Sequence record: OQ067374.1
From: Escherichia phage a20
DNA length: 64,000 bases
Strand: one strand, 5' to 3'
The notes beneath the pieces were generated by a model that saw nothing but the letters and a program-made list of their open reading frames with translations, ran no database searches and was not told the origin of the DNA. Of this stretch, positions 28,096 to 43,682 are shown piece after piece (the stretch's first letter is position 1; each line of letters begins with the position of its first letter). The translations under genes and the position numbers were made by a program.

Positions 28096-28308
28096 TTAAT
28101 TTTGGCCAGTATTTATTTTTCGCCTTTGGACGGCCTTAACATCTGTGAGGTATTTTTCCAGCTTGCGCTTGCGTGTATAATCAGCTTTAGAACCAGTTTG
28201 ACGGATATCCTCGTTTAAATGAGAAATAGAATGTCCTAATTCTCTTCGGATTTCATCCAATTGGGTTACAGTAAGATTACGAAGTTGTCTTTCGTTTAAT
28301 TGCTGCAT
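28096..28308 (-). CDS. Hypothetical protein
   Basis: 70-aa ORF. Confidence 0.55.
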
Positions 28309-28335
28309 ATATACCTCTTGGTTAGATATTAGTAT

Positions 28336-28917
28336 TTATAACAATCCTGTCAAATCATTCCAATGCTTCCGGCATAATGACACATATCTATCAGTATCAC
28401 CAATTTCAATTTGACTGCCATCTGTAATTGGAAGTCCGTCTTCCGTGACTCTAGCTACCATTGTGGCCTTTTTACCACAATGACAGACACCTTTAAGTTC
28501 AACAAGCTTATCGGCAATAGCCATTAATGCTTGAGAACCTTCAAATAGATTACCTTTAAAATCTGTTCGTAGTCCATATGCCATTACCGGCACATTGTAT
28601 ACGTCAACAATACGACTAAGTTGATACACCTTTTCAGTAGTTAAGAACTGAGCTTCGTCAACAAATACGCAGTGAATATCCTTTTGTGCTGCAGCCCATT
28701 TATAGAATTCAAAGATATCCATGTCTTTTGTAATTATATTGGCATCTTGACGAATACCAATACGGGAGACTATTTCACCCTTTGAATCACGAGTATCAAT
28801 AGCCGGTTTAAGAACTAATACACCCATGCCACGTTCTTTATAGTTATGTGCGGCAGTAAGTAATGAAGCAGACTTACCAGCGTTCATAGCGGCATAGGTA
28901 AAAATTAAACTAGCCAT
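28336..28917 (-). CDS. tk: Thymidine kinase
   Basis: 193 aa, P-loop AAMNAGKSASLL, FVDEAQF, zinc ribbon CHCGKKA...CRKH. Confidence 0.92.
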   Translation of the reverse strand: MASLIFTYAAMNAGKSASLLTAAHNYKERGMGVLVLKPAIDTRDSKGEIVSRIGIRQDANIITKDMDIFEFYKWAAAQKDIHCVFVDEAQFLTTEKVYQLSRIVDVYNVPVMAYGLRTDFKGNLFEGSQALMAIADKLVELKGVCHCGKKATMVARVTEDGLPITDGSQIEIGDTDRYVSLCRKHWNDLTGLL

Positions 28918-28926
28918 AAGAGTCCT

Positions 28927-29109
28927 TTATAGTGAATTCACGTAGTCAATGAGTTCTTGTTCTTTCCTGTCAAATGATTCCATCAATGCGTGATATTCTT
29001 CATCTGTTAAAGGAGCATATTCATCGTACGCATTGGTGGCTGCTTGCTCATCCAATAGGTCATGGATAAGTTCGAACAGTTTAGCTTTCTCTTCTTTAGT
29101 TAATTTCAT
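28927..29109 (-). CDS. Hypothetical acidic protein
   Basis: 60-aa ORF. Confidence 0.5.
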   Translation of the reverse strand: MKLTKEEKAKLFELIHDLLDEQAATNAYDEYAPLTDEEYHALMESFDRKEQELIDYVNSL

Positions 29110-29333
29110 TTAGGTTCACCTTCTTTAACGAAATCTGGGTAAGGGTAAAATCCTGAGTAAAACCCTTCACCTTTATGATTGCTACAACCTTTGTTTGAAC
29201 AGTAACACCAATAATCAAAATCACAGGCCATTTCGTCATTGCATAGAGCAAATACTACAGGCCATTCACACTTTTCGCATTTAGCGCCTTTAATAATTTT
29301 TGTTTGACTCATAACCATTTGACCTGCATGCAA
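29106..29333 (-). CDS. Hypothetical Cys-rich protein
   Basis: 75 aa with multiple Cys pairs. Confidence 0.5.
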   Translation of the reverse strand: MHAGQMVMSQTKIIKGAKCEKCEWPVVFALCNDEMACDFDYWCYCSNKGCSNHKGEGFYSGFYPYPDFVKEGEPK

Positions 29334-29521
29334 TATTCTTCGACATGCTTTTTACGACCTTTCTTATCAATAAAGGTATATTCCATAAAGCGTCCATGAT
29401 AACGACGTTCAACATCGTGAGGGGTGTTAATAGGACACTTAGTCTGACGAATTTCTTCCCATTCACGAATAATAACTGCTTTATTCTTTGGGTCATACGG
29501 GTGAGGATAATGCACATTCAT
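29309..29521 (-). CDS. Hypothetical protein
   Basis: Start probably at MNVHYPHPYD; preferred over overlapping frame 29290-29517. Confidence 0.45.
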   Translation of the reverse strand: MNVHYPHPYDPKNKAVIIREWEEIRQTKCPINTPHDVERRYHGRFMEYTFIDKKGRKKHVEEYCMQVKWL

Positions 29522-30015
29522 AACAATGGTTCCCAATCAACAATCACAATTTCTAGTTTAGTGGAATATGTATCAAGAATTTCTTCAATGATATCCCAGT
29601 TTCCACCACCTATACCTGCTCCAATTCTTGGCATGTAAATCACAGGCTTTGCTATCTTATTCTTTCCGAATTTATTTAATTCTATTATACAATTCATTAA
29701 AGCAGAGTACTCAAAATTAGGTCCGGGCTCAAACTGTGTATAAAGATTAAAGCAATAAGCTTTATGGGTCTTAAAATATTTTTCATAAACCGAATAGGAA
29801 CCGAGTTTAGACTCGTCTCCGAATTCGGTTTGAAGTTTATCGGCTTCTAAAATTTTTGGATAAGCCTTTGCTAATTGGCCTGCTACACCGGCGCCCATTG
29901 TATGAAAACAATTACACCCATGAGCAATATTATTACCTTTAGAAAACAGGGCGACAATATCGCCCTTGATATAGTTTTTAATCACTTGCTGCAAGTCCTC
30001 TATTATAAGAGTCAA
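29518..30015 (-). CDS. Macro-domain-like protein (putative ADP-ribose binding/hydrolase)
   Basis: NIAHGCNCFHTMGAGVAGQLAKA resembles the macrodomain NAAN...GGGVAGAL signature; 165 aa. Confidence 0.6.
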   Translation of the reverse strand: MTLIIEDLQQVIKNYIKGDIVALFSKGNNIAHGCNCFHTMGAGVAGQLAKAYPKILEADKLQTEFGDESKLGSYSVYEKYFKTHKAYCFNLYTQFEPGPNFEYSALMNCIIELNKFGKNKIAKPVIYMPRIGAGIGGGNWDIIEEILDTYSTKLEIVIVDWEPLL

Positions 30016-30325
30016 CTAGACGGTCCACCATAGAATTGCATGCTGCCTTATCTTTAGGTTCCGCCACCGAGCATTCTAATATTTGCCATTTTTTATAGTA
30101 TCTTTTAATTAAGGTAGACGCCTTGAACCTACTAGACGCCCCATCTTTTTCTCCGTCTTTATACGCATATAACAATTTTTGTGAAAAATCTACTTTACAC
30201 TCTTGACTTTTACCACAATAATCAGACGCCGTTCTGTTTGTATACTCCGTTACATCAGTATATGTAGTATTAGCAAGAGCGTTAAATGAAACCAAGCCAA
30301 CTATTAAAGCCAACATTTTGGTCAT
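29978..30325 (-). CDS. Hypothetical secreted protein
   Basis: 115 aa, signal peptide MTKMLALIVGLVSFNALA. Confidence 0.55.
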   Translation of the reverse strand: MTKMLALIVGLVSFNALANTTYTDVTEYTNRTASDYCGKSQECKVDFSQKLLYAYKDGEKDGASSRFKASTLIKRYYKKWQILECSVAEPKDKAACNSMVDRLVDSYNRGLAASD

Positions 30326-30864
30326 TCTTTTATTTCCAGTAGTTTATTTGATTTAAGGTAATTAGCCTTTTCTAGGACTTCAGAAGCATATTTACTTCCA
30401 GCACTTGTCTTCCATCCCGCATTATATGAGGATATAGCTTTTCTTATATCCCCGTTATGTATATTTAACCAGTAAGAAAATTCGATATAAGCCCATCTGG
30501 TTGAATTAGACCGCTTAGATAGCATTTTCTTAATTTGGGCATCAGTCATATTATAACCAAGCTGGTTAATTCTTGCCCTCATTGTTGGTAGATAATTTTG
30601 GAACATTCCATACGCATGGTGACCTTTCTTATCTTTAAGATTAATGCCGGCAGATGATTCTTGCCATAGTATTGCGGCCATTATGTATCCAAGTCCTTTC
30701 TTATGCATATTTTCATGCGTTTTAAATTTTCCGTCCTTAGAAAACTGTTCCCCAAACTGATAAGCATAATTCAAGTTATCGAGTTGGACATTACTAAAAG
30801 TATGCTCGGAGCTATGTGCTGATAATGAAAGAGCAAATAGACCAGCGAGTAGTGCTTTTCTCAT
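30322..30864 (-). CDS. Secreted lytic-transglycosylase-like protein
   Basis: Signal peptide MRKALLAGLFALSLSA; AAILWQESS...YGMFQ resembles SLT catalytic ES...GLMQ motif. Confidence 0.6.
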   Translation of the reverse strand: MRKALLAGLFALSLSAHSSEHTFSNVQLDNLNYAYQFGEQFSKDGKFKTHENMHKKGLGYIMAAILWQESSAGINLKDKKGHHAYGMFQNYLPTMRARINQLGYNMTDAQIKKMLSKRSNSTRWAYIEFSYWLNIHNGDIRKAISSYNAGWKTSAGSKYASEVLEKANYLKSNKLLEIKE

Positions 30865-30872
30865 GTTTACCT

Positions 30873-31331
30873 CTAGATTTTAATCACTGCTTTAGAAGCT
30901 TTTCCTGGTAGTCGTTTACTGTTAATAATAGCCATTCTGCATTGAAGAGTCTTCATTTTGAATGCCGGATTTTCGCGACAAACTGTAAGTCCCAACCAAA
31001 GATTTCCATCAGTTATTTCTAAACGGCCTGGACGGTATTCGACACCTTCGACAAAATCTTCATCAACATCTGGACGTGCCGGCATTGATAAAAATTCTGC
31101 AACTTCTTTAACATGATTTTTTACTTTACGAAATAATTCAAAAACGTAATTCTCATCTATTTCTCTCTGGATGGCACGATCTAAGAGATGTTGAGAATAC
31201 TTGATATGAAAGCCTGGTAGTCCAAGAGACTTTGCAGCATCTTTTATACTGGCATTTATTTTGCGGAACTCCGTTTCAAAGATTCGACGGAGTTTATTAC
31301 GGCGGATAAAAACGTCTGAATTGATAGTCAT
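30873..31331 (-). CDS. regB: Endoribonuclease RegB
   Basis: 152 aa, MTINSDVFIRRNKLRR...LQCRMAIINSKRLPGKASKAVIK matches T4 RegB. Confidence 0.9.
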   Translation of the reverse strand: MTINSDVFIRRNKLRRIFETEFRKINASIKDAAKSLGLPGFHIKYSQHLLDRAIQREIDENYVFELFRKVKNHVKEVAEFLSMPARPDVDEDFVEGVEYRPGRLEITDGNLWLGLTVCRENPAFKMKTLQCRMAIINSKRLPGKASKAVIKI

Positions 31332-31359
31332 TTTGATTTCTCCTCTAGTTGACAGGTCT

Positions 31360-31388
31360 ATAGTAACACAACTAGAGGAGAAGTAAAC
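31360..31388 (-). promoter_or_regulatory. T4-early-type promoter (GTTTAC-N17-TACTAT) nested in 12-bp inverted repeat that includes the regB SD
   Basis: Arms TCTCCTCTAGTT / AACTAGAGGAGA at 31339-31381 flank the -10. Confidence 0.45.
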
Positions 31389-31392
31389 TACT

Positions 31393-31608
31393 TTATTGAT
31401 AAAATGGAGTTAAAGCCCAAGATTCTTTAGATACCATATTGGCGAAATGCCTCATCTCTTCGATTTGGCGACGACGCTGGTCAGCATAGTCTTCTTCGCC
31501 TTCTTCCTTACAATCTTCAAGGTCTTCTTCAAGATACTTTAAGTATTCACTACAAATTTTGTTGACTTTTTCTTGGAAGTCCAATAACCCAGTAATAGTA
31601 GAAGCCAT
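31393..31608 (-). CDS. Hypothetical acidic protein
   Basis: 71-aa ORF. Confidence 0.55.
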   Translation of the reverse strand: MASTITGLLDFQEKVNKICSEYLKYLEEDLEDCKEEGEEDYADQRRRQIEEMRHFANMVSKESWALTPFYQ

Positions 31609-40230: not shown

Positions 40231-40306
40231 TGGTCGAGACAGAAGGATTCTAACCTTCAACCTACGGATTAGAAGTCCGTTGCTCCATACAATTGAGCTA
40301 TGCCTC
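40231..40306 (-). tRNA. tRNA-Arg (anticodon UCU), CCA encoded
   Basis: Hand-folded cloverleaf: acceptor CGAGGCA/TGTCTCG, anticodon stem ACGGA/TCCGT, loop CTTCTAA, T-arm GAAGG-TTAGAAT-CCTTC. Confidence 0.8.
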
Positions 40307-40312
40307 GAATAT

Positions 40313-40386
40313 ATGACCCAGACCAGATTCGAACTGGTAACCTTTCCCTTATGAGGGGACTGCTGCTAACCATTGAGCTACAGGGC
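40313..40386 (-). tRNA. tRNA with anticodon CAU (Met or Ile2), CCA not encoded
   Basis: Hand-folded: T-arm ACCAG-TTCGAAT-CTGGT, anticodon loop CTCATAA, acceptor with one U-U mismatch and one G-U. Confidence 0.65.
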
Positions 40387-40448
40387 CTAAATAACTTTCT
40401 ATTATGAAAGGCACTTTAGAGCACCTTTGGTAATAGAGGGTACGAATT

Positions 40449-42257: not shown

Positions 42258-42943
<686 letters not shown>

Positions 42944-42947
42944 TTTA

Positions 42948-43682
42948 TTACCTTAAGATTGTTTCAATTTTAGAATAAAGCTCTTCTAAAGAGCCGTCGT
43001 TTGTAATAACTAAATCGCCTTCTTCAATAGGCAACCCAGCTTCTGTAATATGTTTATCTGTGGATTCCGTACCAGAGCGAACCACATGAATAACTGTAGC
43101 ACCCATCGCTCTAGCGGTTTCCATTTCATGGACTTGGCGTGTATCGGTTACAACATAGTAATCGAAATCACTTCCAATATAATCCATATAGTTTAATGCA
43201 AAAAGTTTAACCCAATACATACGGTCAAATAAATTAACGACAACATCCGTACCGAGGGCTTGCATAAGACGGCGGATTGACCATGTGTCGTTGATATTAT
43301 TTATAGCTTCACGCAGGGCTTCATATGGTTTAATATCTAGATATGAATACCCACCTTCTAATGATGATAATACTTTAACATTATTAATTGGTAAATATTG
43401 ACTTTGTAAATAAATTAGCGCTTCTTCCATTAATTCAATAACATCCAACTTATTGAGATTTAATGGTGTTTCACGGTCGTATCCAATGCCTTCAAAGTAT
43501 TCGTATTTCAACTCTGTGAATACATCAGGATCTTCAGCATGTTTACGTCCCCAGGCTATTGCTAGAGCGTCTTTAATCGGATATGCCAATTGGTATTTTA
43601 CGGATTTAAAGTTTGAATTGATGTAATCAGCAGTAGTGTCTTTACCACTACGTTTGATGCCACTTAAAAAGATTAGCTCCAT
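42948..43682 (-). CDS. 1: Deoxynucleoside monophosphate kinase gp1
   Basis: MELIFLSGIKRSGKDTTADYI P-loop; RRLMQALGTD, MYWVKLFAL, T4 gp1-like. Confidence 0.9.
   Translation of the reverse strand: MELIFLSGIKRSGKDTTADYINSNFKSVKYQLAYPIKDALAIAWGRKHAEDPDVFTELKYEYFEGIGYDRETPLNLNKLDVIELMEEALIYLQSQYLPINNVKVLSSLEGGYSYLDIKPYEALREAINNINDTWSIRRLMQALGTDVVVNLFDRMYWVKLFALNYMDYIGSDFDYYVVTDTRQVHEMETARAMGATVIHVVRSGTESTDKHITEAGLPIEEGDLVITNDGSLEELYSKIETILR

Follow-up and report, generated by a model that had tools for sequence, protein, structure and literature searches.

The minus-strand gene at positions 29518..29985 of the window analyzed here, a stretch of 64,000 nucleotides from Escherichia phage a20 (OQ067374.1), is the ortholog of phage T4 tk.4, which has been renamed adfM (anti-DarT factor, macrodomain), and the source of the window is a T-even phage. 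The gene encodes a stand-alone macrodomain of 155 amino acids. It is likely that this T4-type product is an ALC1-like macrodomain that counters DarTG2 by hydrolysis of thymidine-ADP-ribose, using an active site of the SCO6735 type.

The tk.4 gene as such is already known, as it is annotated in hundreds of phage genomes and its action against DarTG2 in T4 was described in 2025. What our analysis adds is a corrected start codon and the placement of the T-even AdfM among the Gln-type, SCO6735-like macrodomains, with a short loop, and not among the Lys-type, DarG-like ones. The discovery value is small, and the result is mainly useful as annotation, for example in host-range prediction.

Gene start, locus and annotation

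We confirmed an open reading frame at 29518..30015 on the minus strand, whose translation includes NIAHGCNCFHTMGAGVAGQLAKA. The preliminary description had taken the full 165 amino acids of this frame, counted from the first in-frame TTG (30015), as the length of the protein. However, homology to T4, the spacing of the ribosome-binding site and existing annotations lead to a protein of 155 amino acids, which is 10 codons shorter and runs from a GTG at 29985 to a TGA stop. T4 Tk.4 (NP_049723, 155 aa) is 85% identical to the window protein over all 155 residues and begins at residue 11 of the long frame; its ATG start aligns base-for-base with the GTG of the window. A Shine-Dalgarno-like GAGGA (29996..30000, minus strand) is found 10 nt upstream of the GTG and at the same distance before the T4 ATG. 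In addition, the RefSeq CDS of phage phiC120 is the 468-nt version, mapping to 29518..29985, the proteins of the 99%-identical cluster (184 member sequences) have 155 amino acids, with clusters overall spanning 150–157, and the tblastn alignments of more distant homologs begin only at residue 11 of the long frame. Based on these observations, GTG 29985 was taken as the start, and all residue numbers below follow the 155-aa numbering. The coding sequence thus defined is supported by the open reading frame, T4 homology, the phiC120 annotation, and the macro profile and fold described below.

The additional 10 codons (29986..30015, minus strand) lie inside the gene vs and are absent from all homologs; judged by sequence, they are probably not translated as part of the tk.4 protein. 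A start at TTG 30015 would create a 38-nt overlap with vs, as opposed to 8 nt for GTG 29985. Both this TTG and a further in-frame TTG at 29994 were ruled out as starts by T4 homology, ribosome-binding-site spacing and the existing annotations. Three plus-strand open reading frames in the same region (29345..29638, 29628..29720 and 29875..30033) were likewise set aside, being antisense to the well-supported tk.4.

The locus follows the order tk, tk.1, tk.2, tk.3, tk.4, vs, vs.1, regB, which is the same in the window, the T4 reference record and phiC120. The immediate neighbours of tk.4 are vs upstream (29978..30325, minus strand), which overlaps its 5' end, and tk.3 downstream. PHROG scans of the neighbouring genes in the window identified the thymidine kinase, the valyl-tRNA synthetase modifier and the RegB endoribonuclease; tk.1, tk.2, tk.3 and vs.1 gave only PHROG matches of unknown function. 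The stop codon of tk.4 (TGA) and the start codon of tk.3 (ATG) share an ATGA at 29518..29521 on the minus strand (tcat on the plus strand), and the same 4-nt overlap is present in T4 and phiC120. This arrangement suggests translational coupling of tk.4 and tk.3, as in T4. Of the genes in T4, vs was the one most strongly depleted in minimal medium in the HIDEN-SEQ preprint (bioRxiv 10.1101/2025.11.20.689424).

The names given to the gene vary between databases. The T4 reference record calls tk.4 'phosphatase; contains A1pp phosphatase motif', and other records use 'macro domain protein', 'ADP-ribose binding module' or 'T4-like phage protein with Macro domain, Poa1p_like family'. AdfM was chosen independently as a name for T4 Tk.4, which is Gln-type, and for PhiKZ gp104, which is Lys-type, and these belong to remotely related clades. 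Annotation transfer by the name AdfM alone would therefore conflate the two.

Macrodomain class and active site

The macrodomain call of the preliminary description, for which a profile search and a fold prediction had been set as tests, stands on both. The Pfam Macro profile (PF01661) matched with E=2.2e-6 and 28.1 bits, compared with a curated gathering cut-off of 22, and covered 116/118 profile positions; PHROG 335 ('phosphatase') matched with an E of 4e-66. An AlphaFold2 model built on an alignment of 90 homologs reached a pLDDT of 95.2 and a pTM of 0.90 and displays the three-layer alpha/beta/alpha macro fold. The top matches of a sequence search against the PDB were macrodomains only, namely Bt_1257 (2e-11), yeast Poa1p (7e-9), SCO6735 (6e-5), TARG1 (1e-3) and DarG (2-4e-3), and a profile made from the 90 homologs sharpened these matches to 3e-17 for TARG1 and Bt_1257, 2e-14 for SCO6735 and 1e-13 to 5e-12 for DarG. 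By structure as well as sequence, the nearest neighbours belong to the ALC1-like class (TARG1/DarG/SCO6735/Poa1p) and not to MacroD, PARG or viral nsp3. The 'NAAN...GGG' signature by which the domain had been recognized is of the MacroD type and did not hold up; the protein instead carries the TARG1/DarG-class pattern HGCNC...MGAG...PRIGAGIGGG. MacroD-class fold neighbours and NAAN...GGG motifs, as expected of a MacroD/YmdB-type protein, were looked for in the protein and were absent.

DarG-specific models covered only the macro part of the DarG protein. The PADLOC DarG model matched with 1.8e-8 over positions 4-145 of 329, and the NCBIfam DarG equivalog NF048014 scored 30.7 bits against a cut-off of 250 over model positions 4-146 of 338 only. 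According to both models, the C-terminal DarT-binding domain of DarG is absent from the 155-aa protein; moreover, no darT toxin gene lies next to tk.4, where the neighbours are vs and tk.3. On these comparisons, the tk.4 product is not a DarG and presents itself as a stand-alone, 'orphan antitoxin-like' enzyme. Since the DarT-binding domain is missing, the protein probably acts as an enzyme only.

We assessed conservation in a set of 121 sequences, comprising the window protein and 120 homologs. Gly33, Ala35, Asp49, Gly62, Asn80, Tyr82 and Gln84 are invariant (121/121), and Pro119, Ile121, Gly122 and Gly124 are kept in 119/119 of the sequences covering these positions. His22, Gly23 and Asn25 are nearly invariant, with Asn25 retained in 119/121. 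With every invariant residue intact, the window allele is very probably functional. The predicted ADP-ribose-binding set, namely an N-terminal Asp, a distal-ribose Asn and two Gly-rich phosphate loops, appears complete and conserved. The N-terminal residue, Asp9, lies in a KGD motif that TARG1 also has at the aligned position, and we take its role to be the contact with adenine. Asn25 (codon 29911..29913, minus strand), the distal-ribose Asn, corresponds in profile alignments to N27 of SCO6735, N22 of T. aquaticus DarG and N23 of the PhiKZ AdfM. The first phosphate-binding loop (GxG), Gly31-Ala32-Gly33 (29887..29895, minus strand), aligns with MGAG of TARG1 and GKG of DarG and SCO6735, with Gly33 as its invariant residue. 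The second, Gly122-Ala-Gly124-Ile-Gly-Gly-Gly128 (29602..29622, minus strand), places Gly122 and Gly124 at G126 and G128 of SCO6735.

The active-site position is occupied by Gln84 (codon 29734..29736, minus strand), which is equivalent in profile alignments to Q85 of SCO6735, K84 of TARG1 and K80 of DarG and also aligns with the Gln of Bt_1257. The catalytic Lys of TARG1 and DarG is thus absent, and Gln84 takes its place in 121/121 sequences; we found no mention of an invariant Gln at this position in the literature searched. Gly126 aligns with D125 of TARG1, so that the catalytic dyad K84/D125 of the human enzyme (TARG1/OARD1, 4J5R/4J5S) is replaced by Gln84/Gly126. In the DarG proteins of T. 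aquaticus (5M31/5M3E) and M. tuberculosis (5M3I), whose sequences were taken from PDB alignments, catalytic Lys80 corresponds to the phage Gln; the Lys of the FPTK motif is at position 90 of the 5M31 chain and becomes Lys80 under an assumed 10-residue offset from an N-terminal tag. All these equivalences rest on mutually agreeing profile alignments, as MAFFT (with Bt_1257, SCO6735 and TARG1) misplaced the strand of the catalytic position. A Lys of Bt_1257 placed opposite Gln84 by single-sequence HMMER was also discarded, because the profile alignment pairs Gln with Gln and a loop insertion.

The closest active sites are those of SCO6735 from Streptomyces coelicolor (PDB 5E3B) and Bt_1257 from Bacteroides (2FG1/2AFC), which are Gln-type ALC1-like macrodomains with only 21-28% identity to the phage protein. 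The profile alignment matches Q84 to Q85, N25 to N27 and G124 to G128 of SCO6735. In SCO6735, Q85A abolishes activity, N27S nearly abolishes it and G128E reduces it substantially (PMC9411070), and the Asn25-equivalent has been mutated in homologs (PMC9411070, PMC13309987). For the phage family, suitable targets of mutagenesis are accordingly Gln84 and Asn25 and not a lysine. However, the resemblance has limits. A mobile loop about 5 residues longer than in DarG and TARG1 is a hallmark of the SCO6735 subclass (PMC9411070), whereas the phage family lacks the 5-6 additional residues that SCO6735 and Bt_1257 carry after the Gln and has the loop length of TARG1. The DNA-positioning lysines of SCO6735, K34 and K89, are not kept either: K34 corresponds to Ala32, and the loop of K89 is missing, which counts against a reading as hydrolase.

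Two further invariant residues, Asp49 (codon 29839..29841, minus strand) and Tyr82 (codon 29740..29742, minus strand), have no counterpart in TARG1, DarG or SCO6735, and an Asp of Poa1p aligns with Asp49. Because of these two residues, the chemistry or substrate range may differ from that of TARG1, DarG and SCO6735. It is conceivable, if rather unlikely, that the T4-type Tk.4/AdfM represents a third, phage-specific ALC1-like subclass with a broader or different substrate range or chemistry, and that, separately, the hairpin described below may regulate the amount of protein. If so, activity on other nucleic-acid or small-molecule ADP-ribose adducts from undescribed defences would be possible.

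DarTG2 counter-defence and alternative functions

The suggestion of the preliminary description that the protein could reverse DarT-type DNA ADP-ribosylation matches the genetics of the T4 ortholog, as the T4 tk.4 knockout is DarTG2-sensitive (bioRxiv 10.1101/2025.11.20.689424). In the HIDEN-SEQ study, a preprint of November 2025, a T4 transposon library was screened on E. coli with DarTG2, and tk.4 was the single significant hit; a clean T4 tk.4 knockout was sensitised to DarTG2, and the gene was dispensable on plain K-12. The authors noted a structural similarity of Tk.4 to the M. tuberculosis DarG macrodomain, and renamed the gene adfM; in their words, it 'seems likely' that ADP-ribose is removed from DNA enzymatically (bioRxiv 10.1101/2025.11.20.689424). 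This DarTG2 role of Tk.4/AdfM complements AdfN (T4 30.3), a NADAR enzyme that reverses the guanine ADP-ribosylation of DarT1 (PMC11825919). With respect to activity, SCO6735 is quicker than DarG and TARG1 at removing from DNA the thymidine-ADP-ribose that DarT produces, is inactive on guanine-ADP-ribose and rescues E. coli from DarT (PMC9411070). The literature searched contained no biochemical assay either of T4 Tk.4 or of any other Gln-type phage family member. We infer both that the T4-type protein hydrolyses thymidine-ADP-ribose and that the phenotype carries over to the window ortholog, as the DarTG2 phenotype was measured for T4 and the window allele differs at 15% of positions.

The window gene and its T4 ortholog both lie between tk.3 and vs, and they share the 4-nt gene overlaps, a hairpin at the 5' end and all family-invariant residues. 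Among the 15% of residues that differ are those of loop 1, which reads GAG in the window and GSG in T4, and of loop 2, with GIGGG in the window and GIGKG in T4. By analogy with T4, the source phage very probably resists DarTG2. A functional parallel is provided by the PhiKZ gp104 'AdfM', which is also a phage-encoded stand-alone macrodomain countering DarTG2 and removes DarT2-made ADP-ribose from DNA in vitro (Cell Rep 2026, PMC13309987). However, gp104 belongs to a different clade: it is DarG-like, with an E of 1e-24 to M. tuberculosis DarG and an FPTK catalytic Lys, and its similarity to the window protein is limited to a 23-residue BLAST match. Furthermore, gp104 is imported into the phage nucleus, whereas T-even phages have no phage nucleus.

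In the mechanism we propose, DarT2 would ADP-ribosylate thymidines of single-stranded phage DNA once a T-even phage has infected a DarTG2 host, and replication would be blocked. The macro cleft of Tk.4/AdfM would then take up the ADP-ribose adduct, with Asp9 contacting the adenine, the GAG and GAGIGGG loops the diphosphate and Asn25 the distal ribose. Hydrolysis of the N-glycosidic bond between ribose and thymine would release ADP-ribose and restore the base, with Gln84, held by Asn25, in place of the catalytic Lys of TARG1 and DarG. As an 'orphan antitoxin', Tk.4/AdfM would work as an enzyme only. Because of the invariant Gln84 at the position of the catalytic Lys, catalysis would probably depend on substrate positioning and an activated water, not on a lysine, in analogy to the mechanism proposed for SCO6735, in which the Gln positions the distal ribose together with an activated water (PMC9411070).

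Several other activities were considered. Following the historic GenBank label, the protein might be a Poa1p-like ADP-ribose-1''-phosphate phosphatase that clears Appr-1''-p formed by the KptA/Tpt1 2'-phosphotransferase in RNA repair, with DarTG2 protection as a side activity or absent, but we regard this as improbable. Poa1p is structurally as close as DarG in the fold comparison, which does count against thymidine-ADP-ribose hydrolysis. On the other hand, the A1pp phosphatase annotation is motif-based and not experimental, and Poa1p has Ser, not Gln, at the position of Gln84 in the alignment. When Pnkp/Rnl1 repair tRNA in T4, no 2'-phosphate remains and no Appr-1''-p is therefore expected, which we counted against the phosphatase. 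Moreover, DarTG2 sensitivity is the sole reported phenotype of T4 tk.4, a gene that plain K-12 does not require (bioRxiv 10.1101/2025.11.20.689424). A survey of viral NAD and ADP-ribose systems leaned towards small molecules as the substrates of phage Macro domains generally and left room for DNA de-ADP-ribosylation (PMC9503650); for the Tk.4 family, the T4 genetics supports the latter.

Just as doubtful, or slightly more so, is an O-acetyl-ADP-ribose deacetylase or a protein Glu/Asp mono-ADP-ribosyl hydrolase with host or phage proteins as its targets, including an editing of Alt/ModA/ModB modifications. The modifications set by Alt and Mod are arginine-linked ADP-ribose, and their reversal by the tk.4 product is unlikely because of this linkage; we know of no TARG1/DarG-class macrodomain that cleaves arginine-linked ADP-ribose. 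In favour of such an activity, several homologs are named 'O-acetyl-ADP-ribose deacetylase (regulator of RNase III)' by JGI/UniRef, and Glu/Asp-linked ADP-ribose on proteins is a further substrate of both TARG1 (OARD1) and SCO6735 (PMC9411070).

We consider it very improbable that Tk.4 acts on immune signals derived from ADP-ribose (Thoeris gcADPR, His-ADPR), by degrading or sequestering them, or that it reverses the ADP-ribosylation of RNA, for example by CmdT. The literature searched contained nothing on Thoeris signal hydrolysis and no other experimental link to such signals, the ThsA-type macro domain is far more distant in the fold comparison than the DarG/TARG1 class, and the T4 screen linked tk.4 only with DarTG2 (bioRxiv 10.1101/2025.11.20.689424). 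In addition, T-even phages carry tk.4 and are nevertheless robustly restricted by CmdTAC (PMC11618068), so that Tk.4 evidently fails to neutralise N6-adenine mRNA ADP-ribosylation.

Finally, a neutralisation of DarT2 mainly through binding or inhibition of the toxin and not through catalysis deserves hardly any credence: catalytically dead SCO6735 (Q85A), DarG and TARG1 do all inhibit DarT in vitro, SCO6735 most strongly (PMC9411070), but the phage protein has no DarG C-terminal domain, the main DarT contact, and the catalytic-site residues are all invariant across Escherichia, Acinetobacter, Campylobacter and Vibrio phages, a pattern more in keeping with an enzyme than with a toxin-specific binder.

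Distribution, hairpin and further features of the window

A tblastn search with the window protein gave a match in 2,791/50,697 phage records, mostly of large virulent phages of Escherichia, Klebsiella, Salmonella, Pseudomonas, Vibrio, Acinetobacter, Aeromonas and Campylobacter. At the nucleotide level, the surrounding 3.1-kb block (28300..31400) shares 98.2% identity with Escherichia phage FP43 and 97.7% with both phiC120 and Av-05, and at least 80% of the block is covered by 150 phage records. Among RefSeq genomes, phiC120 (97.7%) comes closest and belongs to Mosigvirus; T4, fPS-2 and fPS-65 are members of Tequatrovirus. At 95-99% identity, the window allele groups with those of about 150 phages, FP43 and phiC120 among them, and this group is distinct from the T4 allele group. 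Overall, the Tk.4 alleles fall into bands of 95-99% (151 records), 80-90% (222 records) and under 60% identity (2,402 records), a pattern consistent with mosaic exchange of the tk-regB accessory block. In Edwardsiella phage PEi20 (201..656), tk.4 is annotated as a 138-nt CDS only, and tblastn aligns residues 11-162 (numbered as in the 165-aa frame) in one piece. The short CDS is probably an annotation error; since the tblastn alignment is unbroken, any frameshift or internal stop would need to be in-frame.

A strong, GC-rich and terminator-like hairpin is located inside tk.4 at 29948..29966 on the minus strand. It reads AGGGCGAT-ATT-GTCGCCCT and is followed by GTTTTCT, with the T-run extending to about 29939. 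The element lies 20 nt into the coding sequence (codons 7-13), just past the end of vs, and has a predicted stability of dG -13 to -18 kcal/mol (z -2.4 to -3.4). The same nucleotides occur in T4, in fPS-65 and in fPS-2, which has a protein of only 58% identity, and the element is labelled 'terminator' in fPS-2 and fPS-65. The hairpin is absent in the more distant T4-like phages PEi20, F48 and Konradin. We did not accept the invariant nucleotides as proof of selection on RNA structure, since fPS-2 equals T4 across the whole vs/tk.4 junction and the distant phages have no hairpin. The identity of fPS-2 and T4 at this junction rather suggests a recombination mosaic. From its sequence and position, the hairpin may act as an attenuator of transcription that proceeds from vs into tk.4-tk; alternatively, it may be no more than the mark of a recombination junction.

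Elsewhere in the 64-kb window, ARAGORN detected two tRNA genes only, tRNA-Arg(tct) at 40231..40307 and tRNA-Met(cat) at 40314..40387, both on the minus strand. The corresponding region of T4 presumably carries eight tRNA genes, and the tRNA cluster of the source phage thus seems reduced in comparison. A 151-aa open reading frame at 42258..42713 (minus strand) matched PHROG 755 ('RNA ligase') and lies near the dNMP kinase gene at 42948..43682, which is the position of T4 57B. This T4 gene is cited as the anti-CBASS nuclease Acb1 (HIDEN-SEQ, bioRxiv 10.1101/2025.11.20.689424); if the reading frame is indeed Acb1, it would be a second counter-defence gene in the window.
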